Positions 2,384 through 16,783 of a DNA stretch of 17,201 nt are shown here, piece after piece. Within the stretch, counting starts at the first letter, position 1. Each line of letters opens with the position of its first letter. This stretch comes from Candidatus Thorarchaeota archaeon. Lineage in GTDB: Archaea; Asgardarchaeota; Thorarchaeia; Thorarchaeales; Thorarchaeaceae. A model generated the notes under the pieces. The model was given only the letters and a program-made list of their open reading frames with translations. It had not been told where the DNA came from and ran no database searches. Both the position numbers and the translations under genes were made by a program. The stretch spans positions 1 to 17,201 of the forward strand of contig JAEOUG010000055.1 in assembly GCA_016839445.1 (NCBI GenBank), written 5' to 3'.

Positions 2384-3028
2384 ATGGCTCCGCACACTGA
2401 GAAAGTCGCCAATGTGCTTGTGGAATGGACAGAGTCTGGCATTCCGTCCCTTCAGAGTATCATAGACGCGGCTGCCGCAGGGATGGTTTCGAGGAAGGAT
2501 GAGCCCTACAGAACCTTCGTGGCTGACCTGACCCTTGAGCGAGCCAAGGACTTCCTCTCCAAAATGATTCGTCTGGGTCACGAGAGCGTACTTGAGCACA
2601 TCAACTTCCAGTTCTGGGTCAGCATGTCCCGGGTTGCATCTCACCAGCAGGTGCGCCATAGAATGGCGTCCTACACTCAGATGAGCCTTCGAAAGAAACG
2701 GAGTCTGACTCCTGACGACTTCGTAGTACCTCCTCAGATTCGTCCGGAAGACCTTGATGAATGGATTGCAGACACTAAGAACGTCATTGCCACCTATGAG
2801 AAGTGGCTTGCCAAGGGCTACGATGTGGACGTGGCCCGGAGAAAGCTGACCCAGGAAGCCAGAACTGACATGGTCATCACAATAAACGCACGGTCTCTGA
2901 GGAACTACTTCAATCTGCGAGCCAAACATGACGCGGACTTCGAGATCAACACTGTGGCCAAGAAGATGTACAATCTCATCGAGAAGCAGGGCCTCGCCTT
3001 CCTGTTCGATGACATTGGGTTCTCGTGA
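2384..3028 (+). CDS. thyX: Flavin-dependent thymidylate synthase ThyX
   Basis: GHESVLEH, SRVASHQQVRHRMASYTQMS (ThyX signature RHR-x7-S), DVARR, NARSLRNYFNLR, A-x-x-EI. Confidence 0.92.
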   Translation: MAPHTEKVANVLVEWTESGIPSLQSIIDAAAAGMVSRKDEPYRTFVADLTLERAKDFLSKMIRLGHESVLEHINFQFWVSMSRVASHQQVRHRMASYTQMSLRKKRSLTPDDFVVPPQIRPEDLDEWIADTKNVIATYEKWLAKGYDVDVARRKLTQEARTDMVITINARSLRNYFNLRAKHDADFEINTVAKKMYNLIEKQGLAFLFDDIGFS

Positions 3029-3133
3029 CTTCCGAAAAATCTTCAGCTTGAGCAGCTAGAGACAGAAAAAACATGGATTTCTTTCTGCTTCTGTCGGATG
3101 ATGTTCTTTAGTCCATTGTACATCCTCTAGTCT

Positions 3134-4039
3134 ATGGTTTCTTCAAGACTGATAGCTGCCCTCCAAATACAGAGCAAGGCGCTGCAGGAGATTCACGAGT
3201 ATCTCCGTAGTCGAAGGTTCCTTGAGATAATGCCGATTATCCTGAGTACTACCACCGACCCCTTAGGGCCCGATCCCGGAAGCAGCATCATTACAACTCC
3301 ACATATCGACTATCTTGGTCAGAGCCTTGTTCTCACACAGAGTATGGTCTTACATAAGCAAATCCTCGTGTCATCGGGCATTGAGCGCTTCTATGTGATG
3401 TCCCCGAATGTCCGTCTTGAACATCCTGATAGGAATTCAACCAAGAGGCACCTCTTCGAGTTCAGTCAAGTCGACTTCGAAATTGCCCATGGCACAATGG
3501 AGGATGTCTTCATGATTGTTGAGGGCCTCCTCAAGTCTGTTACTCGACGAGTTCTCTCAGACTGTGCAGATGAGCTTGACGAGTGGTCTCGACTATTGAA
3601 GTGTCCCGCCAGATTCAAGCGCTACTCGTCTGTAGAACTCCTCGACAGGTACGGAGAAGACTGGGAAACAGCCGCCAGCCTAGATGCTACTGACCCCTTC
3701 TGGGTCATTGACCTGAAGCGTGAGTTCTATGACGCAGAGGAGCCAGAAAGACCCGGATCGTATCGCAACTACGATCTGATATATCCTGAGGGCTACGGGG
3801 AAGCTCTGAGTGGTGGCGAACGCGAGTGGGAGTACGAACGTCTTGTGAAGAGGATACTGCATGATGGACTCCCCCTAAGCCGGTTCTCAAGCTACCTGGA
3901 GCATGCCCGGGAAGGTTTCGTGCCCAGCGCAGGGGCTGGTCTAGGAGTTGAACGTCTCACGAGATATCTGGTTGGAGCTGATCATGTTGGCGATATCCAG
4001 ACCTTTAGGCGAGTTCCAGGTGAACGTGTTGTAGTATAG
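3134..4039 (+). CDS. asnA: Archaeal asparagine synthetase A (AspRS-like, lacking the anticodon-binding domain)
   Basis: Class IIb aaRS catalytic core only (301 aa): TDPLGPDP, LTQSMVLHKQ, SPNVRLE, RHLFEFSQVDFE, GYGEALSGGERE, PSAGAGLGVERL. Confidence 0.92.
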   Translation: MVSSRLIAALQIQSKALQEIHEYLRSRRFLEIMPIILSTTTDPLGPDPGSSIITTPHIDYLGQSLVLTQSMVLHKQILVSSGIERFYVMSPNVRLEHPDRNSTKRHLFEFSQVDFEIAHGTMEDVFMIVEGLLKSVTRRVLSDCADELDEWSRLLKCPARFKRYSSVELLDRYGEDWETAASLDATDPFWVIDLKREFYDAEEPERPGSYRNYDLIYPEGYGEALSGGEREWEYERLVKRILHDGLPLSRFSSYLEHAREGFVPSAGAGLGVERLTRYLVGADHVGDIQTFRRVPGERVVV

Positions 4040-4107
4040 ATGAGACTCGCGCACTTGTCATGATTTATTAGGCTCCAAGCTGAAAAAGTTAGACAAGACT
4101 AAGTTAG

Positions 4108-5535
4108 GTGTCGACGATGGTGGAGCAGGAGACCTCACTGGACAATCTCTGGGACTTCTCCGAACAGGAGGTCCGACGTCGCAGTGCTCGGAGCGAGCGA
4201 GGAATAACGAATGTCATGAAGGGAGATCCTGCTGAAACTCTCCTTCATGCAGTGTTGTGCAGCATCTATGAAGGCTTCACAGAGAGAGAGCGGCTATATG
4301 CTCATCTTGGTTCCATGTTCGCCGTGAGACTCTCTCGCATGACAGTTTCACCACTCGATGTAGATGAAGCAATTCAGCACGGTGTCAACGAGAAGCTGAT
4401 TGCTTCCGCCGACGACCCACTGGCCCTGACGGACAGAGGGAGGACTACTCTTCGAGAGTCCCGAATGCAGATTGTGCACGAGGGCTACTGGATGAGCCGC
4501 TTTCTTCAAGAGAGGAATGTCGTGGCCACCTCAGCTGTCTTTCTTCTCCTCCTCGTAGTGATCAAGACCTGGACTGGGCTCTCGATTGGCAGTCGAGCAA
4601 TGATGACTGACGGGCTTGAGAATCTAACGGATCTGATTGTAGTTGGCATCATCGGTCTCAGCCTCAAATACAAGAGGGACAAGCTTGGCGCCATCGCCAT
4701 CATGGTGTTCATGCTGATTTCAGGGGCGCTCTTGGGTATCAACGGACTCATGAGGCTGATGGAACCAGAAGTGGTCACTGTCAACTTCTGGGCATACATG
4801 GTTGCGGGTCTATCAATCGCAATGAATCTCGGCCTAATTTGGTACAAGACGGTTGTCGGGAGGATGACTGGGAATCTCGCTCTTGTCAGTGATGCGAAGG
4901 AGGACCATTCCCACATCAAGATTGGGAGTGGCGTCTTGATTGGACTGGTGTTTGCGGAGTTCCATATCTACGTCATTGACTCTATCGTGGCCATCATGAT
5001 TGCCTTCCTGATCATCTGGGAAGGGATTGAGGCTCTGAGGGAGATATTCCAGGCGGGCGATGACCTCAGTGTTGACACAATTCATCTTGCAGCAGCTGAC
5101 CAGTACGATGACCTCATCACGGCCTGGATTCTCGCCCAGCTTGCTCGATCTCCCAATACTGAACAGCAGCTCAATGAGGCTTTCATTGAGGGGATCACTA
5201 TCGGGTATCGTTACTATGATGTCCATGCAGTTCTTGGTTTCAAGGACCTTGAGAAGAATGGCATATCGAAGCACATCCAGATTGCCAAGAGAAGTGGTCT
5301 GATTGCCGACAACAACGGAAACCTCTCTATCACCAACAATGGCCTGTCCATGTACTACAAGAATCGGGTGCGGGAGGTCAAGACACTCTCGAAGAGGTTC
5401 TCAAGGGAGCTGTCCCCTCTAAAGAGCGGAGCCTACGCAATCTTCGGATTTGCCATCTTCATTCTGTTTGTGTTGTATGGCTCATCGGTCTACCAAGCAA
5501 TCTTCGACATCCTTCGTGCAGCTCTCGGAATCTAG
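4108..5535 (+). CDS. Cation diffusion facilitator (CDF)-like 6-TM domain flanked by N- and C-terminal winged-helix-like domains, plus a C-terminal TM helix
   Basis: CDF-like TM motifs GSRAMMTDGLENLTD, GNLALVSDAKEDHSH and IDSIVAIMIAFLIIWEG. Flanking soluble regions end in wing-like LIA...LALTDRGR and GLIA...LSITNNG. Start is GTG 4108 or ATG 4117, with TATA-like TTTATTA at 4064-4070. Confidence 0.8.
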   Translation: MSTMVEQETSLDNLWDFSEQEVRRRSARSERGITNVMKGDPAETLLHAVLCSIYEGFTERERLYAHLGSMFAVRLSRMTVSPLDVDEAIQHGVNEKLIASADDPLALTDRGRTTLRESRMQIVHEGYWMSRFLQERNVVATSAVFLLLLVVIKTWTGLSIGSRAMMTDGLENLTDLIVVGIIGLSLKYKRDKLGAIAIMVFMLISGALLGINGLMRLMEPEVVTVNFWAYMVAGLSIAMNLGLIWYKTVVGRMTGNLALVSDAKEDHSHIKIGSGVLIGLVFAEFHIYVIDSIVAIMIAFLIIWEGIEALREIFQAGDDLSVDTIHLAAADQYDDLITAWILAQLARSPNTEQQLNEAFIEGITIGYRYYDVHAVLGFKDLEKNGISKHIQIAKRSGLIADNNGNLSITNNGLSMYYKNRVREVKTLSKRFSRELSPLKSGAYAIFGFAIFILFVLYGSSVYQAIFDILRAALGI

Positions 5536-5544
5536 AGCCCGGAT

Positions 5545-5590
5545 AAAAAGAAGTGTGACTGGAGCTCGAGAGCTCCAGTTCTATTCTGTT
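5545..5590. terminator. Bidirectional hairpin terminator between the convergent CDF gene and porB
   Basis: ACTGGAGCT-CGAG-AGCTCCAGT (5558-5579, perfect 9-bp stem). The minus strand continues CACACTTCTTTTT and the plus strand continues TCTATTCTGTT. Confidence 0.6.
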
Positions 5591-6548
5591 ACTCGACGCC
5601 ACATCGCTTCTTGAGCAGCTCCCAGTCATGGGTGACCTGCTCTTGAATGCGCTTCCTGAAGTCTTCCCACTCGGGTTTGAAGAGGTGCTTGAACTGGCCC
5701 TGAGTCTTGAAGTACTCATCAACCGGTGTCAGTTCCTTGAGCCTCTTGCTTGGACCTGACATAATCCACTCTTCTCCGTCAATGACCTCGTAGAGGGGAT
5801 GTAGGCCGGTTTCCACAGCTAGCTTCGAGAGGGACATGCTTGCCCCTGTGTCTGAACGCCAGCCTCTTGGGCAGGGTGAGAACGCGTGAATGAACGCTGG
5901 CCCCTCAACCTCAAGCGCCTTCCGGAACTTGGTGATGAAGTCACGGTAGTTGTATGGCTCCACCGTCGCCACATAGGGAATCTTGTGTGCCGCAACAATC
6001 TCGGCCAGTGGCTTCTTTCGCTCCAGCTTGCCAGGAATTGCGCTCCCGGCCCATGAGGTTGTGGTCTCTTGTCCGGGGAACGTTCCACCAGATCTCTGAA
6101 TCCCGGTGTTCTGGTATGCACCGTTGTCATAGCACATGTAGACAAAGTCATGCCCACGTTCCAGTGCACCACTGATGGCTCCAAATCCAATGTCGAAGCT
6201 GCTTCCGTCACCGCCAATGGCGATAACATCAACGTGGTCATGCTTGTAGCGTCCCTTGTCCCGCATCGCATTGATGGCTTCAACTGCTCCGGAGGCTACA
6301 GCGGCTGCGTTTTCGAAGGCTACATGTATCCACGGAATGCGCCATGCTGTGTACGGATAGATAGTTGTCGCTACCTCTAGACACCCGGTGTTCTCGCAGA
6401 CTATTGTGGGTCCTCTGAGGGCCATGCCCATCAGTTTCACCACTGTCGGCGCTGCGCATCCAGCACACATGCGGTGGCCAGAGCTCAGAATAGGCTCACG
6501 CTTGAGCATGTCCTTGATTGATACGGCTGGTTTGTCTGATTCAGTCAC
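5589..6548 (-). CDS. porB: Pyruvate (2-oxoacid):ferredoxin oxidoreductase beta subunit
   Basis: GHRMCAGC, NTGC, TPP motif GGDG...YDN, NTGIQRS, SPCP. The GTG start overlaps the porA TAG stop by 1 nt. Confidence 0.95.
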   Translation of the reverse strand: MTESDKPAVSIKDMLKREPILSSGHRMCAGCAAPTVVKLMGMALRGPTIVCENTGCLEVATTIYPYTAWRIPWIHVAFENAAAVASGAVEAINAMRDKGRYKHDHVDVIAIGGDGSSFDIGFGAISGALERGHDFVYMCYDNGAYQNTGIQRSGGTFPGQETTTSWAGSAIPGKLERKKPLAEIVAAHKIPYVATVEPYNYRDFITKFRKALEVEGPAFIHAFSPCPRGWRSDTGASMSLSKLAVETGLHPLYEVIDGEEWIMSGPSKRLKELTPVDEYFKTQGQFKHLFKPEWEDFRKRIQEQVTHDWELLKKRCGVE

Positions 6549-7741
6549 TACTTGCGCACCCCCAGGGTTTCGTAGAGGGGAGCTTCCCCTTTCTTCAGGT
6601 ACTCCTTTGTCTTCTCGTATCCCTCGACAATGGTTGTCGGTGGCACATCTCTGCCACCAAGACCGATGACAAAGTCAGTGACCAACGGCTTCTTGTCGAG
6701 ATCATAGAGTGCGGTCTTCAGCTCCAGTGCTAGCGGGTTGCTTGGGGCACCGAATGACCTGCACTTCTCAAAGACTGCTACGGCCTTAGCCTTCTTTAGG
6801 ACTTCAGCGAGCTGCTCGGCCGGGAAGGGTCTGAACAATCTCAGTCTTACTACTCCAACCTTCTCGCCCTTCTCGCGAAGAGCATCACAGACTGCCTTGG
6901 CAGTGCCTCCCGGAGTGCTATGAGTGAAGATGATGATCTCAGCATCCTCTACCCTGTAGGTCTCGAAGAGGCCGTACTTCCGACCGGTCATCTTCTCGAA
7001 CTCCTTCTCGACCTTCTCAAAGACCTCCGGCACCTTATCCATGGCCTCGTCTTGTTGCTCCTTGAACTCGAAATAGTAGTCAGTGAGGGCAAGCGGTCCC
7101 ATGGTTATTGGATTGTCTGGGTCCAAGGCAATGAAGGGCTCCCTCACGCCCAGGAACTTCTGGACCGCATCATCAGGCAACATCTCAACTCGTTCGACGT
7201 TGTGGCTCAGGATAAAGCCGTCAATTCCGACGATGATTGGCAGGAGCACCTTGTGGTCCTCGGCAATCTTGAATGCCATGATGGTAGTGTCGTATGCCTC
7301 CTGGCAGCTCTGGCAGTAGACTTGGATGAAACCGCTGTCACGGGCGCCATACGTATCACTCCAGTCGTTGTGAATATTGATAGGAGCCGACAACGCTCTG
7401 TTGGCCACAGTGAATACAATTGGCATTCGCATGGATGCGGCACAGTACAGAATCTCCCACATCAGGGCCAGCCCTGCTGAGGCCGAGGCTGTTGCCACTC
7501 TGGCACCCACAGCGGAGGCTCCCACACAGGCCGACATGGCGCTGTGCTCGGACTCCACTGGGATGACCTTTGCCTTCACTTCTCCATCTGCGGCGAAGCG
7601 CTGGTAGTCCTCCACGATGATGGTCTGAGGAGTGATTGGGTACGCTGCGAGCACATCAAGATCACACTGCTTGAGCGCGTGGGCGATGGCTGCGTCTCCT
7701 GTCAGACCCTCGATCTTGATCTTGTCTTTGGATACAGTCAT
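6548..7741 (-). CDS. porA: Pyruvate (2-oxoacid):ferredoxin oxidoreductase alpha subunit
   Basis: AAYPITPQT, VESEHSAMSA, NRALSAPINIHND, DGFILSH, LRLFRPFP, GLGGRD. Confidence 0.95.
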   Translation of the reverse strand: MTVSKDKIKIEGLTGDAAIAHALKQCDLDVLAAYPITPQTIIVEDYQRFAADGEVKAKVIPVESEHSAMSACVGASAVGARVATASASAGLALMWEILYCAASMRMPIVFTVANRALSAPINIHNDWSDTYGARDSGFIQVYCQSCQEAYDTTIMAFKIAEDHKVLLPIIVGIDGFILSHNVERVEMLPDDAVQKFLGVREPFIALDPDNPITMGPLALTDYYFEFKEQQDEAMDKVPEVFEKVEKEFEKMTGRKYGLFETYRVEDAEIIIFTHSTPGGTAKAVCDALREKGEKVGVVRLRLFRPFPAEQLAEVLKKAKAVAVFEKCRSFGAPSNPLALELKTALYDLDKKPLVTDFVIGLGGRDVPPTTIVEGYEKTKEYLKKGEAPLYETLGVRK

Positions 7742-7746
7742 CTTCC

Positions 7747-8043
7747 TTACTCACTCTCCATCCGAATGCTCTCAGTTGGGCACTCATGAGCACATATTCC
7801 GCAGCCTTTGCAGAAGTCATAGTCGTACTCGTAGAAGTACTTGCCATCCTTCTCCGTTAGCTTCACAGCATTGTCCGGACAGAAGATCCAGCAGCGGCCA
7901 CATGTACCGTTCTTTATCCACAGGCAAGCCTCAGGATTGTGGATTGGGCGCTGTGCCCGCCACCCTCCGGTCTTGTACTCTGTTGCGTTTCCCGGCTTGA
8001 CAATGTTGCCAGCGATGGGAATCTCGTTGTACTTCTCGCTCAT
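7747..8043 (-). CDS. porD: Pyruvate:ferredoxin oxidoreductase delta subunit (2x[4Fe-4S])
   Basis: YKTGGWR-x-x-RP, C...[30 protein letters not shown] overlap with porG. Confidence 0.95.
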
Positions 8044-8615
8044 CCGATCTTTGCCTCCTTGACTGCTCTCTCTATAGCTACCTTGTTGAGGTCTCCAACC
8101 TTGCCAGGATATCTCTCCTGCACCTCTTTGATGACGGTCTCAACAGCCACTACACCTGTGGCCTTGACAGCGGCAGCCATCGTGGGCATATTATAGAAGG
8201 GCCGACCCATCACTTCGAGAGCGATCTTCGTGGCATCCACCGTGACCACTTTCCCTGTGCTGAAGCCGAACTTCTTGCGAATCTCGGCTGGGTCCTTCTC
8301 ACTGTTGACTACCAGTATCCCGTCTTCCTTGAGGCCTTCGGCTGGATTCACTACGTCAAGTAGCGTCGGGTCAATGCAGACGACAACGTCTGGGCGATAG
8401 ACTTGGGCATAGACCTGAATCGGATCCTTGCTTATACGAAGGAAAGCTCGCACTGGCGCACCTGTTCTCTCAGGTCCGAACTCGGGGAAGGCTTGTATGT
8501 AGTTGCCCTCCGCAAGCGCTGCCTTGCCTAGCATCTGATTCGAGGTCACAACTCCTTGACCGCCTCGACCGTGCCATCTGAATTCTGTAATTCCCTTAGC
8601 GAAATCCAAGGCCAT
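8040..8615 (-). CDS. porG: Pyruvate:ferredoxin oxidoreductase gamma subunit
   Basis: [48 protein letters not shown] lies 7 nt upstream. The gamma-delta-alpha-beta order is the established four-subunit POR arrangement. Confidence 0.95.
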
Positions 8616-8697
8616 TGTAAATTCACCTACGTAGGTTCGTAGAAGCTTCTGAGAGGTGGGGCCCAGAGCCGTGCTTATGTATTTGTTGGAGTGAACA

Positions 8698-9069
8698 CTA
8701 GACGGATGGCCGAAGCTGGTACGCTAGGTTGGCAGAGAGAAGCAGTGTAAGGAGACAGAAGTAGTACCCTGCATCCCCCATTCTGGGAAACAAGGCATTC
8801 AGGAGAGCAATTGCGAGGACAGAGAAGAAGAGCCCTACGACGCCATCACGTCTACGTCTAAGTGAGAGGACTGAAAACACCATACAGATGCCTCCCAGTA
8901 TCAGATTGGCGAATCCGAGAACCATAAGGATGCTTCCGAAGTGCACTGAGTTCGCGGCATTGAGCAGGAGCAGATACCCTGAAAATGAGGCTAGCCACCC
9001 ACACACAATTGCAGACGTTGCAGTAACCCAAGGCCTCCTCTCAAGAGCGTACAATGGAGCACTCTCCAA
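8698..9069 (-). CDS. Hypothetical membrane protein (about 4 TM helices)
   Basis: 123-aa ORF filling the gap between the PKS and porG on the same strand. It has four hydrophobic segments and an RRRRD inside-positive loop. The TTG start is uncertain. Confidence 0.7.
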   Translation of the reverse strand: MESAPLYALERRPWVTATSAIVCGWLASFSGYLLLLNAANSVHFGSILMVLGFANLILGGICMVFSVLSLRRRRDGVVGLFFSVLAIALLNALFPRMGDAGYYFCLLTLLLSANLAYQLRPSV

Positions 9070-9162
9070 TGCTAGTTTCCTCGCCGCCTGCCATGGAACT
9101 CATTCACTCAAATACCTATGCGCGTAATGAGTCGGGGACACTAGGGGGGTTGCCGTGGCGAC

Positions 9163-10278
9163 CTAGAGGTCCAACTTCTCCATCAAGCCAACTTCGACTG
9201 TGATGCCTGGTCCAAATGCGGCCGCGAACACCCTTCCCTTTTTCTTCGAATCTCCCAGAATGTCCGCCAAGACGAACATGATGGTGGTTGAACTCATGTT
9301 CCCGTACTCCTGCATCACCCTGTATGAAGCGTCCAAGTCCTCCTTGGATATTCCCAGCGCCTCCTCTGACTTCTCCAAAATGGCCCTGCCTCCAGGGTGG
9401 ATTGCCCAGATGTCGATCTCTTCCTGTTTGATGCCAGACTCCTCAAAGAGGCCGTCCATGAGTGGTTTGATGTTGTCTTGCACGATCTTTGGAACATAGA
9501 CAGAGAGTTTCATCAAGAATCCATGGTCGCCAATCTTCCATGCCATGTCCTTCTCAGTATCGGCAGCGAAGCTTGTGGCGAAATTGTCCAGTCGATACTT
9601 CGTACCTTTGACATCATCCCTGTGGGCTGAGATCAGCGCCGCTGAAACACCGTCTGCGAAGATGGCATTCGAAACAACGATGTCCATCTCCTCCCTCTGC
9701 TGCATGTGGACTGAGCACAGTTCGACATTGACGAGGAGAACACGGGCATCTGGATCTGCAAGGCAGATATCACGAGCCAGCTTCATTCCTGGAAACGCAC
9801 CCTGACAACCCATGAATCCGATGTTGTACCTGTGAACCGTAGGCTTCAGTCCTAAATCTCGCGCGAGGAAGAAGTCCAGTCCTGGCGCTACAAATCCTGT
9901 ACAACTGACGGTTATTACGTGCGAGATCTTCCTCCGGTCGAACTCCGGAGTCTCCTCGAGGAGTTCCTCTGAAGCTTTCAGTGTGAGGCGCTTCGCCTCC
10001 TGGATGTAGAGATCGTTCCTTTGCGCGGTTGAGGGCTCAGGCTTCAGTGTGGGGTTCTTGGGATAGAAAGTGTACTCTGAAGGATCTTTGTCATAGTCCT
10101 CAATCACTGTGTGGCGCTTCTTGATCTGCGTACCTCTGTAGAGCTTGGTCAGAAGATTCCTTTTCTTCTCTGAGTCACCAACGAGCTTCAACAAGAACTC
10201 GAGGGCGAACTCCTGGGTGTAGGACTTCTCAGGAACCACAGTCACGATTCTGTGTAGGTAGACGTCGGTTGTGTTCAT
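9163..10278 (-). CDS. Type III polyketide synthase (chalcone/stilbene synthase family)
   Basis: Catalytic Cys in GFMGCQGA, His in WAIHPGGRAIL, Asn in YGNMSS, gatekeeper Phe in NAIFADG. Also ITVSCTG, ELCSVH, MAWKIGDHGF and AFGPG. Start is ATG 10278 (MNTTDV), alternatively TTG 10293. Confidence 0.93.
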   Translation of the reverse strand: MNTTDVYLHRIVTVVPEKSYTQEFALEFLLKLVGDSEKKRNLLTKLYRGTQIKKRHTVIEDYDKDPSEYTFYPKNPTLKPEPSTAQRNDLYIQEAKRLTLKASEELLEETPEFDRRKISHVITVSCTGFVAPGLDFFLARDLGLKPTVHRYNIGFMGCQGAFPGMKLARDICLADPDARVLLVNVELCSVHMQQREEMDIVVSNAIFADGVSAALISAHRDDVKGTKYRLDNFATSFAADTEKDMAWKIGDHGFLMKLSVYVPKIVQDNIKPLMDGLFEESGIKQEEIDIWAIHPGGRAILEKSEEALGISKEDLDASYRVMQEYGNMSSTTIMFVLADILGDSKKKGRVFAAAFGPGITVEVGLMEKLDL

Positions 10279-10458
10279 GATGATTGCCTCCAATGCATCT
10301 GCGCGTGCGTGTGCTCATCGAGTGCTGTGGATTATCATGTGGCCCCAGAGATTCATAGATAAGTTTCTTGATACGGAATCAATGGAGTCCTTGTGACTCG
10401 TAGGGCCCATCATTGCTGATTCTTTCAGCGGAGCGTCTAGGAGTTAACCATACACGGG

Positions 10459-10490
10459 TGAGAAAGAGACGCGGGGAGCAGTCCCCGCGT
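10459..10490 (-). terminator. Hairpin plus CU-rich tail after beta-helix gene 1
   Basis: ACGCGGGGA-GCAG-TCCCCGCGT (10469-10490, perfect 9-bp stem) 16 nt after the stop. The minus strand continues CTCTTTCTCA. Confidence 0.6.
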
Positions 10491-10506
10491 GGGTCTAAGT
10501 TCTGAC

Positions 10507-11778
10507 TTATCGCCGTTTCCTGAGGAATCCGGCCACACCAAGTAGAACGACCATGAGACCGATTGCCACGTAGGGAAAGACATCGAGATACTGGTTCCCA
10601 TTCGATGTAGTGCCCGTGGTTGTAGATGGGATTGGCCCATCGGGGTCAACTAGCGGATATGGATCGTTATTCTCTGCATCTCCCTCGATTGCGTACGGAT
10701 TGTCTACAATGTTGTTGCCGTCCACATCTGGGGATGTCCACTCGCTGAAGTAGTTGTAGAAGAATGCGTTATCTTCTCCGTCATCCTCGACCTGACATCC
10801 ATCAGCATTTTCGGTGAGAACGTTCAGAGTCACTGTTGTGTTCTCGGCGGCGCCACCGAGCTTGATCCCGTATTCCGTGCAGTTGCTCACAGTGTTCTCT
10901 TGCAGGATACCGCGGCTCCCAAGAGCGAGGTATATGCCCACCGCCGTGCAATCGCTCACGACGTTACCGGAAATCTCAATGTTGCTTCCAGAAGTCATGA
11001 TTCCTGTTCCTTGAGTCCCGGTGACATTATTGTCCGCTATGACTGTATCAACTGCGCTTGGAATCACTATCGAGTCAAACTCACCGTCTGTGACTGTGTT
11101 GTTTCGGATCTCTGCTCTCAGACATACCAATATTCGAATGGCATTAAGCCCTCCAACAAACGTGTTATCAGAGAACTCAGAGTCATTGAAGCCCCCTGTC
11201 ATCCATATGTTGTTTCCCAGGTTGCCGTGGAAGTCGTTGCCCGAGATTATGCAGTTTGACATCCCGTTGAGGGACACAATGCCCTGCTGATCATTGTCGT
11301 AGATCTCATTGTCAATAATGCTGCAGTTCCTTGTGACATCGACCGCGTTGATGCCAAGGTCTCTGTTTCTAATCACATTCCCCGAGATGACGCCGTTCGA
11401 GACGTTGCTCAGCCAGATTCCAGCAGCATACGGGGGGCCTCCTTCAAGTAGGCAATCACTCAACACCCAGTGGAGGTCCACATTCCAGATCCGAACTGCA
11501 GCCACTCCTGTGTCGGTGATTCTGTAGCCTGATATCGTTACAGGGCTCTCTGAACTCCCCGTCCCTAGCCAGCTCTCTGAGGACGCTTGAGCCAGCAAGT
11601 CTTCATTGCCATCGATGTAGATTGCTGCGTGGTCTGTGTAGGCCGCCGGGATGGCAAGGCCCCTTGCTCCTGTGGGTGTAAGCCTATCTCCTATCCCAAG
11701 AGTGAGCCCAGGGGCCACTGCCATGAGCAGCAGTACGACGAGCCCAATGGCGGGCACAATACGTCTTGTCATTTTCAT
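10507..11778 (-). CDS. Surface-anchored right-handed parallel beta-helix (NosD/CASH-like) protein, paralogue 1
   Basis: Signal peptide, YTDHAAIYIDGN...GTGS..SPVTISGYRI cap, many I-x-x-N repeats, PDVDGNNIVDNPY...NDPYPL, Thr-rich linker, TM helix and RKRR tail. Start ATG 11778 has a GGAG SD; ATG 11802 is an alternative. Confidence 0.88.
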   Translation of the reverse strand: MKMTRRIVPAIGLVVLLLMAVAPGLTLGIGDRLTPTGARGLAIPAAYTDHAAIYIDGNEDLLAQASSESWLGTGSSESPVTISGYRITDTGVAAVRIWNVDLHWVLSDCLLEGGPPYAAGIWLSNVSNGVISGNVIRNRDLGINAVDVTRNCSIIDNEIYDNDQQGIVSLNGMSNCIISGNDFHGNLGNNIWMTGGFNDSEFSDNTFVGGLNAIRILVCLRAEIRNNTVTDGEFDSIVIPSAVDTVIADNNVTGTQGTGIMTSGSNIEISGNVVSDCTAVGIYLALGSRGILQENTVSNCTEYGIKLGGAAENTTVTLNVLTENADGCQVEDDGEDNAFFYNYFSEWTSPDVDGNNIVDNPYAIEGDAENNDPYPLVDPDGPIPSTTTGTTSNGNQYLDVFPYVAIGLMVVLLGVAGFLRKRR

Positions 11779-11873
11779 CCTATCTCCAAGTCTCGGTTTC
11801 ATACCAAGATTGAAGCAGAAGATTGGGCTAATACTAAGTACATTTGCTCTTGGCGCAACGCCCTAGACCCAGG

Positions 11874-11910
11874 CAAGGGAAGACGGCTGCGGCAGTAGGA
11901 CACCGCAGCC
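11874..11910 (-). terminator. Hairpin plus CU-rich tail after beta-helix gene 2
   Basis: GGCTGCGG (11885-11892) pairs with CCGCAGCC (11903-11910), 11 nt after the stop. The minus strand continues GTCTTCCCTTG. Confidence 0.55.
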
Positions 11911-11921
11911 TCAGGTCCATA

Positions 11922-13199
11922 CTATCTTCCACGCTTCAAGAAGACTGCCACTATGACGAGAATCACAATGGCTCCCACGGCAACGAACGGAACTAGGTCC
12001 ATCGAACCTCCTGTGCCTTCGGTCGTAGATCCCGTTACTGTGTTTCCTGTTGCTGTCGGAATCGTAGGGCCATCGATGTCGACGAGCGGGTATCGGTCTT
12101 GGTTCGCGGCGTCGCCATCCAGCAGGTATGGCTCATCCACAACATTGTCAGCATTCAAGTCTGGCGCAGTCCAATCGCTGTAGTGATTGAAGTAGAAGAC
12201 GTTGTCCTCTCCATCATCTTCAATCTGACATCCATCGCTATTGTTGATGAAGGAGTTCTTAGTCACCGTGGCATTGTCCGTGGTTGGACTCAGCGAGAGG
12301 CCGTACTCTGTCGAATTCGTTACTGTGTTGTTCTGAATCACGTGGAAGCCTCCGCTTGCCACCCTGATGCCTATTTCAGAGGAGTCTGCCACCGTATTGG
12401 ACTCTACAATGAAGTTGCCACCGGAAACGAGAATCCCTTGGCCTCCACAGCAAGTCACTGTGTTTTCAGTGATTGCCATGTTGGATGAGCTAAGAACCAT
12501 GAGACCGTCCATTTCTGTTTCGGATATGGTGTTGTGATGCACCACTGACCCTATGCCACCAGCAGCGTTGATCCCGTAGGTTCCGTCTGTGATTGTGTTA
12601 TCAGAAATCAGAGTGTTCGTGTATCCACCGGTGATCCACAGATTCGCTCCGAAATTGTCATGGAACACATTGTCCGAGATTATGCAGTTCAACATGCCAC
12701 CCTGCCCTTCGAACGCGTTTGCCGTATTGTCGTATACTTGGTTTCCAGTGAAGTTGCAGTTCACAGAGCCACCGTAGGCAAGGATTCCGCTGTGCCTATC
12801 ACGGATTACGTTGCCTGAGAACTCCCCATTTGAAATGTTGACGGCCCATAATCCACACACATACGGAGGCCCTCCCTCAAGTAGGCAGTTCCTAATAATC
12901 CAGAACAGGTCAACGTTCCACAGCCTTATGCACTGGGTTGTCGAGTCGGTTATTCTGTATCCTTCTATGATGATTGGGTTGCTGGCCGTGCCATTTCCGT
13001 CCCAGGACTCAGCGGCGGCCTGACTCAAGAAGTCGGAGTTTCCGTCAATCCAAATAGCGTCATGGTCAGTGTAAGCTGCCACCACGGCCCCGTCTTGGGC
13101 TGCCATCTGGGCGGCTCTGTCTGGTCCCACAAGAGTCCCTGTTACTAGTAGCGCCAAGAGGGTTAGAGCTCCTACAAATGCTAATCCACGCAGTCTCAT
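11922..13199 (-). CDS. Surface-anchored beta-helix (NosD-like) protein, paralogue 2
   Basis: Same architecture as paralogue 1 and colinear with it (YTDH, GYRITD, CLLEGGPPY, DGCQ-x-EDDGEDN, YPLVD-x-DGP). Ends in a TM helix and KRGR. Confidence 0.9.
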   Translation of the reverse strand: MRLRGLAFVGALTLLALLVTGTLVGPDRAAQMAAQDGAVVAAYTDHDAIWIDGNSDFLSQAAAESWDGNGTASNPIIIEGYRITDSTTQCIRLWNVDLFWIIRNCLLEGGPPYVCGLWAVNISNGEFSGNVIRDRHSGILAYGGSVNCNFTGNQVYDNTANAFEGQGGMLNCIISDNVFHDNFGANLWITGGYTNTLISDNTITDGTYGINAAGGIGSVVHHNTISETEMDGLMVLSSSNMAITENTVTCCGGQGILVSGGNFIVESNTVADSSEIGIRVASGGFHVIQNNTVTNSTEYGLSLSPTTDNATVTKNSFINNSDGCQIEDDGEDNVFYFNHYSDWTAPDLNADNVVDEPYLLDGDAANQDRYPLVDIDGPTIPTATGNTVTGSTTEGTGGSMDLVPFVAVGAIVILVIVAVFLKRGR

Positions 13200-13298
13200 C
13201 TTGTCTCACATCCAACGAGTCGAGGTCGCATCCAGCGAACCACTGAGCGCATTTAACGTGGTGCTCGGCGCAACAAGGTGTAGCTTCCCGCCCCGCGA

Positions 13299-14663
13299 CT
13301 ATCGAAACTTCTTCAGGACCACCACCAATACAAGTCCTGCAATTCCCATAGCCAGTGCAATCAGGATAACGGGCATCTGGCTCTCAGTTTCTGTACCACT
13401 GGTTGTAGTTGTGGGCAATGAATACCAGGTCGGAAGGTCATGCGCCGGTAAGGCGAGTGGATACGCATCCGAATTGGCCGCAGTGCCATTGATCTGGTAG
13501 GGAATATCAACATAGGCATCTTCGTTTTCATTTGGAGTTGTCCAAATGTCCCAGAAGTTCTCATGGAAGTGATTACCGGATCCGAGATCGTATGCGTGAC
13601 TGCCCTCCCCATTACAGAGGAAGTTGTTTCCAGTGATATCGTTTCCCTGGCAGTTCTCAGAGAACTCCACGCCCCATTCCGTATTGTTGGCGACTGTGTT
13701 GCTTCTTATTGTGTTATGCGAACCAGAACGTCCCGTGAACTGCGAGTGATAGAACCTCAGACCTGTCTCGGAGTTGTGAGCTATGTAGTTGCCTATGACG
13801 CTGTTATTCTCGGTCCCAATGGATGCGCCATTCCTGTTTCCAACAAGGTTGTTTGACACAAGTGTGCCGTTGCCAGCACTGACCAGTACGCCGTTGTTAC
13901 ATGCCTCCACCGTGTTGTTCTCAATCCATACCGACCCTGACCCCACGGCTATGCCATTGACGCCCTGACTTGAGATGGAGTTGTCGGAGATTGTGCAGTT
14001 GAATGCCTCTAGCACCTTGATTCCGTCTCCCCCATTCGCGCTGACATTGTTTCCCGCGATCTCGAGATTCATGCTTGACGGAGCGCCATATGGGTTCCCG
14101 ATGTAGATGCCGCCATCTGGGTTGCCCGTGACCCGGTTGCAGCTGACAACCACGTTGCTCGAGGCATGCTCCACAACCACTCCATACATGATGTTGTCCC
14201 ATACTTCATTTCCCGAAATGACGTAGTTCTCAACATGAACAACATGGATTCCAACTGCAGCTCTTCTCACAAGGTTGCTTGCGATGGTCCCGTTTGAGGA
14301 GTCTATGATCGCTATCCCACACCAGATGCCGCTGATTCCATCAAGCGAGTTACCTGCGAAGACGTAGTGGACTCCCGAGTTGCTCACGCGGAACATGTGC
14401 TCTGCCGCTATGAACCTGTAGCCGGTGATGATGTAAGGAGCAGTCTCCGATCCATTGCCGCTCCAACCTTCCAGCGTTGCGGTGTCATGGAATTCTTGAT
14501 CCCCATCAATGAGGATAGGGTCATGATCCGTATATGCCAGACTCCTATCCAAGTCGGGCTGTAGGCTTGAGGGGCAGCCGAAACTCGCTATCGGCAATAC
14601 AACTCCCACTAACAGCAGGCTAATTGGAACAAGGCTAAGGGGTCTTCTTCCGCGTGACTGCAT
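13299..14663 (-). CDS. Surface-anchored beta-helix (NosD-like) protein, paralogue 3
   Basis: Signal peptide, YTDHDPILIDGD...WSGNGSETAPYIITGYRF, beta-helix repeats, NFWD...YVDIPYQI...SDAYPL, Thr-rich linker, TM helix and KKFR. Confidence 0.9.
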   Translation of the reverse strand: MQSRGRRPLSLVPISLLLVGVVLPIASFGCPSSLQPDLDRSLAYTDHDPILIDGDQEFHDTATLEGWSGNGSETAPYIITGYRFIAAEHMFRVSNSGVHYVFAGNSLDGISGIWCGIAIIDSSNGTIASNLVRRAAVGIHVVHVENYVISGNEVWDNIMYGVVVEHASSNVVVSCNRVTGNPDGGIYIGNPYGAPSSMNLEIAGNNVSANGGDGIKVLEAFNCTISDNSISSQGVNGIAVGSGSVWIENNTVEACNNGVLVSAGNGTLVSNNLVGNRNGASIGTENNSVIGNYIAHNSETGLRFYHSQFTGRSGSHNTIRSNTVANNTEWGVEFSENCQGNDITGNNFLCNGEGSHAYDLGSGNHFHENFWDIWTTPNENEDAYVDIPYQINGTAANSDAYPLALPAHDLPTWYSLPTTTTSGTETESQMPVILIALAMGIAGLVLVVVLKKFR

Positions 14664-14918
14664 GATCAGATGAACGCTCCTGCTTCAATAGAACAGCACT
14701 CCTCTGCCTCAATTAAGCAGATGGGGTCAACGCAATGGATGAGGCGCACTTGGAGATAGGGTGGCCGTGAGGGCCACCCGTCCCCCATACGTGAGGAGAA
14801 AACGCAATTGCGAGCAAGAGACTGGTCCTTACCCGTGGAACCTATCCGAGCCGCAAAAGCTCATTGAGGAAGTAGGACACTCCAAGTATTAATAGGTCTA
14901 CCATCCGCGCAAGCGGCT

Positions 14919-16151
14919 TCAGTACATGCGCTTGATCACGACAAGGAGTAGTACGAAGGACAGCACAGTAATACCTGACGCAATCATGACCAATTCTGTT
15001 CCCATCCCACCAAACACGAAGGAGACCGCAGTAACAGAGACGGAATCGTTTTCAGTGTTCCCCCCAGCATCCGTGACAATGAGCGTGAGATTGTGCGTTC
15101 CTGGAGCTATGGTGTCCAGCAGGACCGAGATTTCGCCGCCCGTCCATGCTCCGCTCTTCCACGAGAACGAATTGATCAGCACTGTGTATGTGAAGGGGTA
15201 GGAGTCATTAGCAGCCCACTCTATGAAGTTACCATTGCTCTCTATATCAAAGGCGAAATCATGGACTGGGTCCACGGTTGGGCGTACCGGATCATCAAAG
15301 AAAGCCGCGAAGTTGTCAATTGAACCCGAGTCGCCAGCGATCAGGTATGGCTCCGATTCATTGTAGTCCGAGTACGCATTTCCCACTCCGATACCATCAT
15401 CAAACCTGTTATCCAGTCCGCTGTCTCGTGCATGTGTTTCTATGCCATTCCTTACGAAGTTCCAGCCGAATTCGTTACGCAGAACAGTGTTGTTGTAGGA
15501 GTATGGTTCGAATTCCACACCAACGAAGGTGTTCCTATAGATACTGTTGTTCTCGACTCGGCAGTATGTGGACCCCTCAAACATTATCCCCTTGTAGTTC
15601 GCGTAGAGTTTGCAGTCAGTTATCTCGCAGTCGGTCGACTGATAGACATAGACGCCGTTCCCAGCGTTGCCCTGTGAATAGCAGCCAACCACTCTGCAGT
15701 CGTCTGACCACATGAATTGGATTCCATTTGTGGCACCTGTTAGGAAGCAGTTCTCAATGGATCCATGCTCCACGAAGGAGAACAAGACGACTGCAGCAGT
15801 CGAAGCTGAAGTTGTGCCTAAGTCGCAATCTCGAATGACAAAGAACGCAGTGGTTCCCGAGACCCTAATGGCGGGTGCTGAGGATTTGATCTGAAGGTTC
15901 GATATGACATAGGGGTCATTCCTAGTCCCAACTCCCGAAGTGGCAATCTCAACGAGCTCCTGATTGTTTTCGATGGCAATATTGCCGCTTCCAACATACT
16001 GCTTGCTCTGGCATTCCGAATCAATGAATCCGGTCGTCTGTTGCTTGGAACCAGTGCCTAGAGGCGCCGAGAAGAGAATCAGCCCTAGGATGATGACTGT
16101 CACTAGCCCAAGCCGACGCACCAAATCTATCTTCCTCTGTGAGTGGAACAT
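14919..16151 (-). CDS. Surface-anchored beta-helix (NosD-like) protein with a C-terminal Ig-like domain, paralogue 4
   Basis: N-terminal TM/signal, SGVGTRNDPYVISNL cap, a shorter beta-helix, GNAYSDY, Ig-like PGTHNLTLIVTDAGGN...VSVT, TM helix and KRMY. Start ATG 16151 (MFHSQ); GTG 16196 overlapping the upstream stop is an alternative. Confidence 0.87.
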   Translation of the reverse strand: MFHSQRKIDLVRRLGLVTVIILGLILFSAPLGTGSKQQTTGFIDSECQSKQYVGSGNIAIENNQELVEIATSGVGTRNDPYVISNLQIKSSAPAIRVSGTTAFFVIRDCDLGTTSASTAAVVLFSFVEHGSIENCFLTGATNGIQFMWSDDCRVVGCYSQGNAGNGVYVYQSTDCEITDCKLYANYKGIMFEGSTYCRVENNSIYRNTFVGVEFEPYSYNNTVLRNEFGWNFVRNGIETHARDSGLDNRFDDGIGVGNAYSDYNESEPYLIAGDSGSIDNFAAFFDDPVRPTVDPVHDFAFDIESNGNFIEWAANDSYPFTYTVLINSFSWKSGAWTGGEISVLLDTIAPGTHNLTLIVTDAGGNTENDSVSVTAVSFVFGGMGTELVMIASGITVLSFVLLLVVIKRMY

Positions 16152-16192
16152 CCGCGATACCTCTTGAAGGTTACCGCTTAAGCAGAAGGGAG

Positions 16193-16783
16193 TCACGCGT
16201 CCTCAGTCCCGACAATCTCCGCATTCAGACCATTGGCCTCAAGAAATCGCGTTCTGTACTCACGGTTTTGGATTCTCAACACGACTACATCCTTTGATCT
16301 AGCCATGTCCACAAACCTCAGTTTCCTTTCAAGTGCTCGTGGGAACAATCCATAGAGAAGGCTGCCCAGGAGAATCAGTATTGAGCCAATGAGTCCTATC
16401 CAGGTGCTCATCACGGGCTCGGAGTAGTATGATGTGGCGTTCAACTCAAGGAGGAAATAGAGGACCGGATAGAACATCACGAAGAACCCGACGATTGCCA
16501 CAAGTCTGGTGCGAAATGTCCTTACGCTCCTACTGCCATGAGACATGCACGTGGGGACTGCGAAGGTCGCATAGCCCTTGGCCGAACTTAAGGCCGACGA
16601 GATCTTGTCATCCTGGCGGCTCCAAGATGTACCAATGTGGTCATCTTGTCTTAGCCTGTCAAGGACGGTTATGAAGACAAGGTCCTCTGCGGGGTCAAGA
16701 CAGACGGGGCAGACCTCGGGGAACTCGATGACTGACAGCTTAGCCTTAACGAATTCCTTGTTTGGACGTCTCATGTGCTTCAT
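16193..16783 (-). CDS. Hypothetical membrane protein with putative Zn-binding CxxC/CxxH motif and two TM helices
   Basis: FPEVCPVC and VPTCMSH, then two hydrophobic helices and a soluble tail (LRIQNREY...FLEAN). An AGGAG SD lies upstream. Confidence 0.8.
   Translation of the reverse strand: MKHMRRPNKEFVKAKLSVIEFPEVCPVCLDPAEDLVFITVLDRLRQDDHIGTSWSRQDDKISSALSSAKGYATFAVPTCMSHGSRSVRTFRTRLVAIVGFFVMFYPVLYFLLELNATSYYSEPVMSTWIGLIGSILILLGSLLYGLFPRALERKLRFVDMARSKDVVVLRIQNREYRTRFLEANGLNAEIVGTEDA

Follow-up and report, generated by a model that had tools for sequence, protein, structure and literature searches.

An intact type III polyketide synthase gene at a fixed chromosomal site in Thorarchaeota, in a family without a detected biotin carboxylase

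The stretch of DNA analysed here (the window) is a whole contig of 17,201 bp (JAEOUG010000055.1; C15) from a 2.9-Mb, 190-contig genome bin of a Candidatus Thorarchaeota archaeon (GCA_016839445.1; G000). On its minus strand it carries a gene for a type III polyketide synthase (PKS), which is intact and under strong purifying selection. The gene and the signals around its start, including a putative transcription factor B recognition element (BRE), are as follows:

9163..10278, minus strand: type III PKS coding sequence, 371 aa, with its ATG at 10278 and the stop codon TAG at 9163-9165
9805-9807, 9397-9399 and 9298-9300, minus strand: codons of the catalytic residues Cys158, His294 and Asn327, respectively
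9658-9660, minus strand: codon of the gatekeeper residue Phe207
10287..10291, minus strand: GGAGG, a Shine-Dalgarno-like motif 8 nt before the PKS ATG, recognised from sequence only
10355..10367, minus strand: BRE/TATA-like element GAAACTTATCTAT, 76 nt upstream of the PKS ATG, with a conserved core
10469..10490, minus strand: G+C-rich hairpin with a T-rich tail, just past the stop codon of the upstream beta-helix gene, from a consensus scan

An original prediction, made from the sequence of the window, had proposed that this open reading frame (ORF) encodes an intact type III PKS of the chalcone synthase family, distinct from HMG-CoA synthase and FabH, and our results confirm this. Both Pfam domains of the family were matched far above their cut-offs of 27 bits (Chal_sti_synt_N, PF00195, 89.4 bits; Chal_sti_synt_C, PF02797, 94 bits), whereas scores against NCBIfam models fell far below the cut-offs for HMG-CoA synthase (20.6 and 16.5 bits versus 244 and 353), FabH/KAS III (best 56.4 bits versus 249) and the 3,5-dihydroxyphenylacetyl-CoA synthase DpgA (NF042429, 135.5 bits versus 425). 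The Pfam scan of the 371-aa protein returned only thiolase-superfamily matches, with no carrier or acyltransferase domain, as in a stand-alone ketosynthase of approximately 40 kDa. Its closest sequence matches in the PDB were PKS1 of Ectocarpus siliculosus (4b0n, 166.6 bits) and PKS18 of Mycobacterium tuberculosis (156.1 bits). An AlphaFold2 model built from a 20-sequence family alignment was confident (predicted local distance difference test score 88.6; predicted template modeling [TM] score 0.92), and a Foldseek search with this model recovered solved type III PKSs (7d41, 4b0n and 1tee; TM scores 0.88-0.90).

The motifs quoted in the prediction were all found in the translation (ITVSCTG at residues 122-128, HPGG at 294-297, GNMSS at 326-330 and FGPG at 355-358), and the Cys-His-Asn triad is complete, as predicted. 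The catalytic cysteine does not lie in ITVSCTG, however; it is Cys158, within GFMGCQGA, which aligns to the cysteine of the MGCAAA motif in PKS18 and Ectocarpus PKS1. His294 (in HPGG) and Asn327 (in GNMSS) likewise align to the triad motifs of these two enzymes. A gatekeeper phenylalanine is present at F207, within IFADG, and is the only one; the second gatekeeper position, which we take to be F265 in chalcone synthase numbering, is occupied by Met256. C158, F207, H294 and N327 were invariant across the 20-sequence alignment. Among the seven orthologues of the genus, dN was 0.008-0.087, and the ratio of nonsynonymous to synonymous substitution rates (dN/dS) was 0.018-0.032 in the 12 of 21 pairs for which dS could be computed, dS being saturated in the other nine.

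The TATA-like element attributed to the gene was recovered as described, with GAAACTTATCTAT lying exactly at 10367-10355. Its core, CAAGAA(A/G)(C/T)TTAT(C/G/T)TAT, is kept in all seven orthologous upstream regions of the genus while the flanks have diverged, and in an alignment of these regions the block is the only long conserved island near the PKS start. This pattern fits a BRE plus TATA box. The hairpin at 10469-10490 is a likely terminator that would separate the beta-helix gene from the PKS transcription unit, and is weak evidence on its own; the terminator consensus scan returned two sites, versus 1.5 expected in shuffled sequences. A sigma-70 scan gave one promoter-like site versus 1.5 expected, a result that says little for an archaeon. 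The six other carriers in the genus share a conserved inverted repeat, GCTGGAGAG ... CTCTCCAGC, approximately 200-250 nt upstream of the PKS start, which is probably the terminator of the upstream gene; the window lacks it and has the hairpin at 10469-10490 instead. A search of public sequencing runs recovered 20 DNA runs from seven studies and no RNA runs.

The site of the gene is bounded on both sides by genes on the same strand:

5589..8615, minus strand: PorG-PorD-PorA-PorB 2-oxoacid:ferredoxin oxidoreductase operon, assigned from Pfam, best NCBIfam matches (PorA/B/C/D) and synteny; downstream boundary
10507..11802, minus strand: beta-helix/NosD-like gene (Pfam NosD and Beta_helix); upstream boundary

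PKS genes were found in 7 of the 28 genomes of the genus, all at this one site between a beta-helix gene and the Por operon (PorGDAB; best match, the pyruvate type). The same gene order, comprising a 124-aa protein, a 196-aa protein, one or more beta-helix genes, the PKS and then PorG, PorD, PorA and PorB, recurs in G354, G359, G343 and G355, as well as in G361, where the contig is short, and in G357, where two contig ends divide it. Of 27 PorG loci, identified in 26 of the 28 genomes, six carry the PKS directly upstream, two are uninformative and 19, from 18 congeneric genomes, are empty, with a beta-helix-family gene abutting PorG and no PKS. When mapped onto a tree of PorG, PorD and PorA for the genus, PKS presence requires four changes, at least two of which are forced by well-supported branches. 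The genome of the window is separated from the other carriers at a deep branch, has its PKS at the same insertion site and holds the most divergent copy (86-88% identity, versus 89-98% among the other six). Ancestral presence in the genus with repeated loss is therefore the scenario that fits best. We also considered a functional link between the PKS and the Por operon and rejected it; Por-adjacent copies were seen in this genus only, the loci of G375 and G317 (two other genera of the family) and of a second Asgard family of another class (f8) being different, and the adjacency is best regarded as a coincidence of the insertion site.

The placement of the window in an Asgard chromosome among housekeeping genes, and the lack of mobility genes nearby, both held up. 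In addition to the conserved gene order and the empty sites across the genus, the G+C content of the contig (0.525) matches the genome mean (0.526 ± 0.007). By tetranucleotide profile the contig ranks 19th from the least typical among 83 contigs of at least 10 kb, and the PKS gene resembles the genome more closely than do 83% of random windows of its length. The 20 organism-named PorA relatives among 120 listed were all Asgard (16 Thorarchaeota, 2 Lokiarchaeota, 1 Promethearchaeota and 1 Odinarchaeota, with no bacteria). A Pfam scan of the 17 other ORFs in the window found no transposase or integrase domain. Junctions at both ends of the gene are also covered by Logan contigs from public runs: a 1339-nt contig (runs X3 and X4, possibly one data set filed twice) spans 8111-9449 and joins PorG to the 3' part of the PKS, and a 279-nt contig from another study (run X1) spans 10201-10479, covering the PKS 5' end and the region upstream.

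Across the phylum, a PKS match (E ≤ 1e-30) was found in 22 of 400 genomes. Leaving out the genome of the window, these were distributed over its own family (f1, 8/85 genomes, including 6/27 in its own genus), f8 (12/31) and a third family (f13, 1/12). The nearest database proteins, 78-88% identical, are named by NCBI as type III polyketide synthases of Candidatus Thorarchaeota or Hodarchaeota archaea, followed at 54-62% identity by Spirochaetota-labelled proteins and one labelled 'Asgard group archaeon'; cluster look-ups added relatives labelled Hermodarchaeota and Promethearchaeota. Bacterial type III PKSs that formed the outgroup, from Balneolota, Verrucomicrobiota, Deinococcota, Actinomycetota, Bacteroidota and others, were 36-48% identical. 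A careful IQ-TREE analysis (LG+C20; 71 rows, chosen from the 209 of a FastTree analysis) placed all 17 Asgard-labelled rows, together with 2 unlabelled ones, in a single clade of 19 (support 100/99), in which the window's family was monophyletic (100/100). This clade belongs to an ingroup of 57 rows (100/98) that also holds six Spirochaetota-labelled rows in two separate clades. The tree thus shows a single Asgard type III PKS clade allied to Spirochaetota-type enzymes, and gives no direction of transfer. A nesting of the Asgard clade among Spirochaetota-labelled rows, as seen with FastTree and a quick IQ-TREE run, was dropped after an approximately unbiased (AU) test and the careful tree.

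Gene context differs between the bacterial and the Asgard loci. Each of the two bacterial ingroup loci has a gene for a class-I S-adenosylmethionine-dependent methyltransferase that overlaps the PKS gene on its downstream side and, approximately 1 kb upstream on the same strand, a gene for a flavin adenine dinucleotide (FAD)-dependent monooxygenase (FAD_binding_3). Of 79 bacterial loci, several of them truncated contigs, 42 had a homologue of the methyltransferase and 45 one of the monooxygenase within 3 kb on the same strand, whereas neither was found near the PKS at any of 18 short or 14 long Asgard loci. Nor did the genome of the window contain a homologue of the cassette methyltransferase at E ≤ 1e-3. 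Because the cassette is common to outgroup and ingroup bacteria, the more parsimonious scenario is transfer of the synthase alone from a bacterial ancestor to an Asgard lineage. An all-against-all comparison of genes within 5 kb also revealed no neighbour family common to all 14 Asgard loci.

A search for an acetyl-CoA carboxylase as the malonyl-CoA source, suggested along with the original prediction, failed to yield one. None of the 86 family genomes, including 23 with completeness of 90% or more and contamination of 5% or less, had a match to the Biotin_carb_C domain; 13 of 14 control genomes and all five PKS-carrying f8 genomes were positive in this search. Biotin_carb_N was not found in the genome of the window either, and a tblastn search of this genome with an f8 biotin carboxylase gave a best E-value of 0.22. 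Without a biotin carboxylase in the family, the usual source of malonyl-CoA is missing, and we consider this the one unexpected part of the finding. The genome does, by its best matches, encode a carboxyltransferase:

G000:C12:9112-10572: carboxyltransferase (664 bits; mmdA subfamily, 851 bits)

Near it lie a biotin ligase gene and a glyoxalase-type epimerase-like gene. Elsewhere, a 5S-like protein (HMGL-like plus PYC_OADA) is split across two contig ends, with a 174-aa biotin carrier and a thiolase encoded after it, and the genome also has two methylmalonyl-CoA mutase matches; no OAD_beta sodium pump was found in it. Judged by domain content, the carboxyltransferase, 5S-like protein, carrier, ligase, epimerase-like protein and mutase look like a transcarboxylase-type methylmalonyl-CoA pathway of propionate or succinate metabolism. 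Malonyl-CoA could come from this transcarboxylase-like set if the enzyme also carboxylates acetyl-CoA. Acyl-CoA metabolism is represented in the genome by four acyl-CoA dehydrogenase genes and five AMP-binding ligase genes.

With regard to the product, residues C126, T127, C188, H191, W247, M256 and S329 were invariant in 20 Asgard, bacterial and unlabelled sequences. We take these to be cavity positions of chalcone synthase, and on that assumption the same product class would be expected, namely an untailored alkylresorcinol or alkylpyrone made from an acyl-CoA starter. The phenolic lipids suggested by the original prediction stay conjectural, with the problem of extender supply attached to them.

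Taken together, these results make it probable, in our judgement, that the gene encodes a functional and native stand-alone Thorarchaeota PKS with its own promoter, derived from an old bacterial transfer and served by a non-canonical extender supply. The synthase alone would have passed once, long ago, from a bacterium to Asgard archaea and then been inherited with many losses, and as an accessory gene it would be transcribed from its own archaeal promoter of the BRE/TATA type. By analogy with the family, an acyl-CoA starter would be loaded on Cys158, malonyl-CoA-derived units would be added by decarboxylative Claisen condensation using His294 and Asn327, and the chain would be cyclised to an alkylresorcinol- or alkylpyrone-type product and left untailored. 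The extender would come from a non-canonical route, most likely the 12S/MmdA-type carboxyltransferase with the 5S-like HMGL+PYC_OADA protein and the 174-aa biotin carrier; methylmalonyl-CoA may be an alternative extender. A more specific proposal is that extender units are made by ATP-free transcarboxylation (oxaloacetate plus acetyl-CoA to malonyl-CoA), or that the enzyme has switched to methylmalonyl-CoA, and that the result is an untailored, possibly methyl-branched phenolic or pyrone lipid in an isoprenoid-ether membrane. This we offer as speculation and consider improbable. If true, it would link polyketide synthesis to archaeal fermentative carbon metabolism in a manner not described for bacteria.

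Several points, concerning both chemistry and origin, weigh against this account. A plentiful malonyl-CoA pool is less likely in a family without biotin carboxylase, which argues against a simple route from malonyl-CoA to alkylresorcinol. Supply of malonyl-CoA by the transcarboxylase-like set presupposes an activity on acetyl-CoA like that of the propionibacterial transcarboxylase, which is not stated in the portion of PMC8085960 that was available. The cavity positions are putative, and with no partner gene conserved across the Asgard loci, context gives no handle on the product. A native enzyme that does not perform classical malonyl-CoA chemistry, and instead extends with methylmalonyl-CoA or carries out one or two condensations to a small methyl-branched pyrone or diketide, would accommodate the 0/86 count, the two further negative tests on the window's genome, and the presence there of methylmalonyl-CoA mutase (two matches), an epimerase-like gene and an MmdA-type carboxyltransferase. 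Type III PKSs that incorporate methylmalonyl-CoA do exist and cluster apart from malonyl-specific ones, according to the accessible part of PMC10896814. We nonetheless think this alternative unlikely: PKS-positive f8 genomes have biotin carboxylase (5/5), the active-site columns are identical to those of the f8 enzymes and a change of substrate is therefore not visible in the sequence, and the transcarboxylase-like set could supply malonyl-CoA.

As for origin, the ingroup backbone in the careful tree is a polytomy, and nesting of the Asgard clade within bacteria is accordingly not established. The AU test did not reject a topology in which the 38 non-Asgard ingroup rows form one clade with Asgard basal (p-AU 0.744), its log-likelihood exceeded that of the quick free tree by 12.7 units, and 33 of the 57 ingroup sequences have no organism label. 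Given the polytomy and the AU test, it is cassette parsimony and the bacterial outgroup, rather than topology, that indicate the direction of transfer. The polytomy and the AU result are also compatible with the clade having arisen in Asgard archaea, as sister to all other ingroup members, and having then passed to Spirochaetota-like bacteria, and so is its span over f1, f8, f13 and sequences labelled Hodarchaeota, Hermodarchaeota and Promethearchaeota. This direction is implied by PMC11093982, the accessible text of which mentions a Thorarchaeota homologue, roots a type III PKS tree on it and suggests Asgards as the point of emergence of the family. On the other hand, the outgroup comprises diverse bacterial phyla at 36-48% identity, the gene is present in only 22 of 400 Asgard genomes, and the cassette, found in outgroup and ingroup bacteria and at no Asgard locus, would need to have been rebuilt. 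The cassette evidence thus favours a bacterial source over the emergence suggested in that text, and while the tree alone cannot decide, we regard an Asgard origin as very unlikely. The last possibility, that bacterial contamination or chimeric assembly accounts for the contig and that the PKS is not archaeal, draws on the estimated contamination of the bin (6.45%, at 89.8% completeness) and on the bacterial identity of the nearest non-Asgard relatives. It is effectively refuted by the repetition of the gene order in six further genomes of the genus (one split over contig ends), the empty-site alleles at the same place in 19 loci, the genome-typical composition, the Asgard identity of every organism-named PorA relative and the junction contigs from other public runs.

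Among known systems, the gene resembles bacterial alkylresorcinol synthases (planctomycetal enzymes, cyanobacterial HidC and SrsA of Streptomyces griseus) in family, length (approximately 370 aa) and triad. Operons of a methyltransferase, an FAD oxidoreductase and a type III PKS contain alkylresorcinol synthases, as shown by heterologous expression in the part of PMC10896814 that was available, and such operons also hold the bacterial PKSs nearest to the Asgard clade. In contrast, the methyltransferase and FAD oxidoreductase partners of the srsABC/hidABC-type cassette are lacking at every Asgard copy examined, bacterial loci outside its clade are only 36-48% identical to the PKS of the window, and the Thorarchaeota host has no detected biotin carboxylase. 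Structurally, the top matches included mycobacterial long-chain-acyl type III PKSs, namely PKS18 (1ted/1tee) and the M. marinum enzyme (7d41/7cb3), with TM scores of 0.88-0.90; mycobacterial PKSs were also among the top PDB sequence matches (156 and 147 bits) with aligned Cys, His and Asn, although identity in the structural alignments was 26-28%. Ectocarpus PKS1, the best PDB sequence match (TM score 0.90), differs in being eukaryotic, and the structural alignment with it gave 28% identity.

The gene is less new than the original prediction implied. Close relatives are already named as type III PKSs by NCBI, the Asgard copies in public records being uncharacterised, and a Thorarchaeota homologue was mentioned in 2024 (PMC11093982, accessible text). 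What is new here is the family-wide lack of biotin carboxylase (0/86), and since the gene itself is ordinary-looking and already annotated, we regard the novelty as modest. The literature searched described neither the polymorphism of the site nor the conservation of the promoter element, and did not report that the family lacks biotin carboxylase. That literature, on type III PKS in Asgard archaea, Thorarchaeota and archaea at large, also yielded no characterised archaeal type III PKS, and a copy kept under selection in the prokaryotes most closely related to eukaryotes is therefore a justified choice for expression and assay. A characterised product would tell whether archaea with ether-isoprenoid lipids make phenolic lipids, and would reveal how a malonyl-CoA-dependent enzyme is fed in the absence of acetyl-CoA carboxylase. 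The rare and patchy distribution of the gene in Asgard archaea (22/400) likewise bears on the Asgard emergence suggested in PMC11093982, as far as its available text goes.

Further features of the site lie on either side of the PKS gene:

8698..9069, minus strand: 123-aa hydrophobic ORF between the PKS and PorG, with no Pfam or NCBIfam match
10507-16196, minus strand: four tandem beta-helix/NosD-like paralogues (431, 425, 454 and 425 aa) upstream of the PKS

The spacer between the PKS and PorG (8616-9162) measures 547 bp in the window and approximately 80 bp in most congeners. The 123-aa ORF within it was not present at orthologous loci of the genus and is possibly not a gene; the corresponding spacer of G343 holds an unrelated 135-aa ORF. 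Beta-helix/NosD-like proteins were observed near the PKS in the window's genus (g1) and at the f8 loci of G033 and G019, as well as within two genes of it in G375. As a conserved partner of the PKS they were rejected, since the links between loci are merely repeats of 22-30% identity. With approximately 20 such places in the window's genome alone, we interpret their proximity as probable clustering in variable surface-protein regions.

Other Asgard loci have neighbours of their own. Membrane methyltransferases of the ICMT/PEMT type are paired with some bacterial type III PKSs, and one is encoded in G375 (G375:C14, L026, 12616-13467, minus strand) two genes upstream of the PKS on the same strand, with a 456-aa protein of no clear family in between. 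Among the Asgard loci compared, G375 alone has this neighbour; the window's genome has five weak ICMT-like places, all away from the PKS locus. Arylsulfotransferase-family (ASST) genes flank the PKS in two f8 genomes assigned to different genera:

L032 (G030:C102), 2596-4209 and 6078-8192: ASST-family genes beside the PKS
L033 (G014:C70), 5274-6389 and 7806-10982: ASST-family genes beside the PKS

One of the flanking ASST proteins of this pair of genomes is fused to an SCP2 lipid-binding domain, and in G014 a homologue of old yellow enzyme is also encoded next to the PKS. Phenols are the substrates of aryl sulfotransferases, and the ASST proteins of G030 and G014 are candidate tailoring enzymes, to be taken as leads only. 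In the main f8 group, a DUF72 protein is encoded upstream of the PKS, and Fe-S and metallo-beta-lactamase proteins downstream.

The remainder of the contig encodes a Ras-family GTPase, a glycerophosphodiester phosphodiesterase (GDPD), ThyX, an archaeal-type asparagine synthetase A and a CDF transporter, besides the Por operon and the beta-helix genes. The Ras-family small GTPase domain (135 bits) occupies residues 151-309 of an ORF at 1-942 on the plus strand, which is open at the contig start; the 150 or more N-terminal residues preceding the domain matched no family. A GTPase with such an extension is typical of the 'eukaryotic signature' GTPases of Asgard archaea. Two divergent ORFs, that of GDPD with a predicted start at 2442 on the minus strand and that of ThyX with one at 2384 on the plus strand, share 59 nt at their 5' ends, and at least one of the two start codons therefore probably lies further in.

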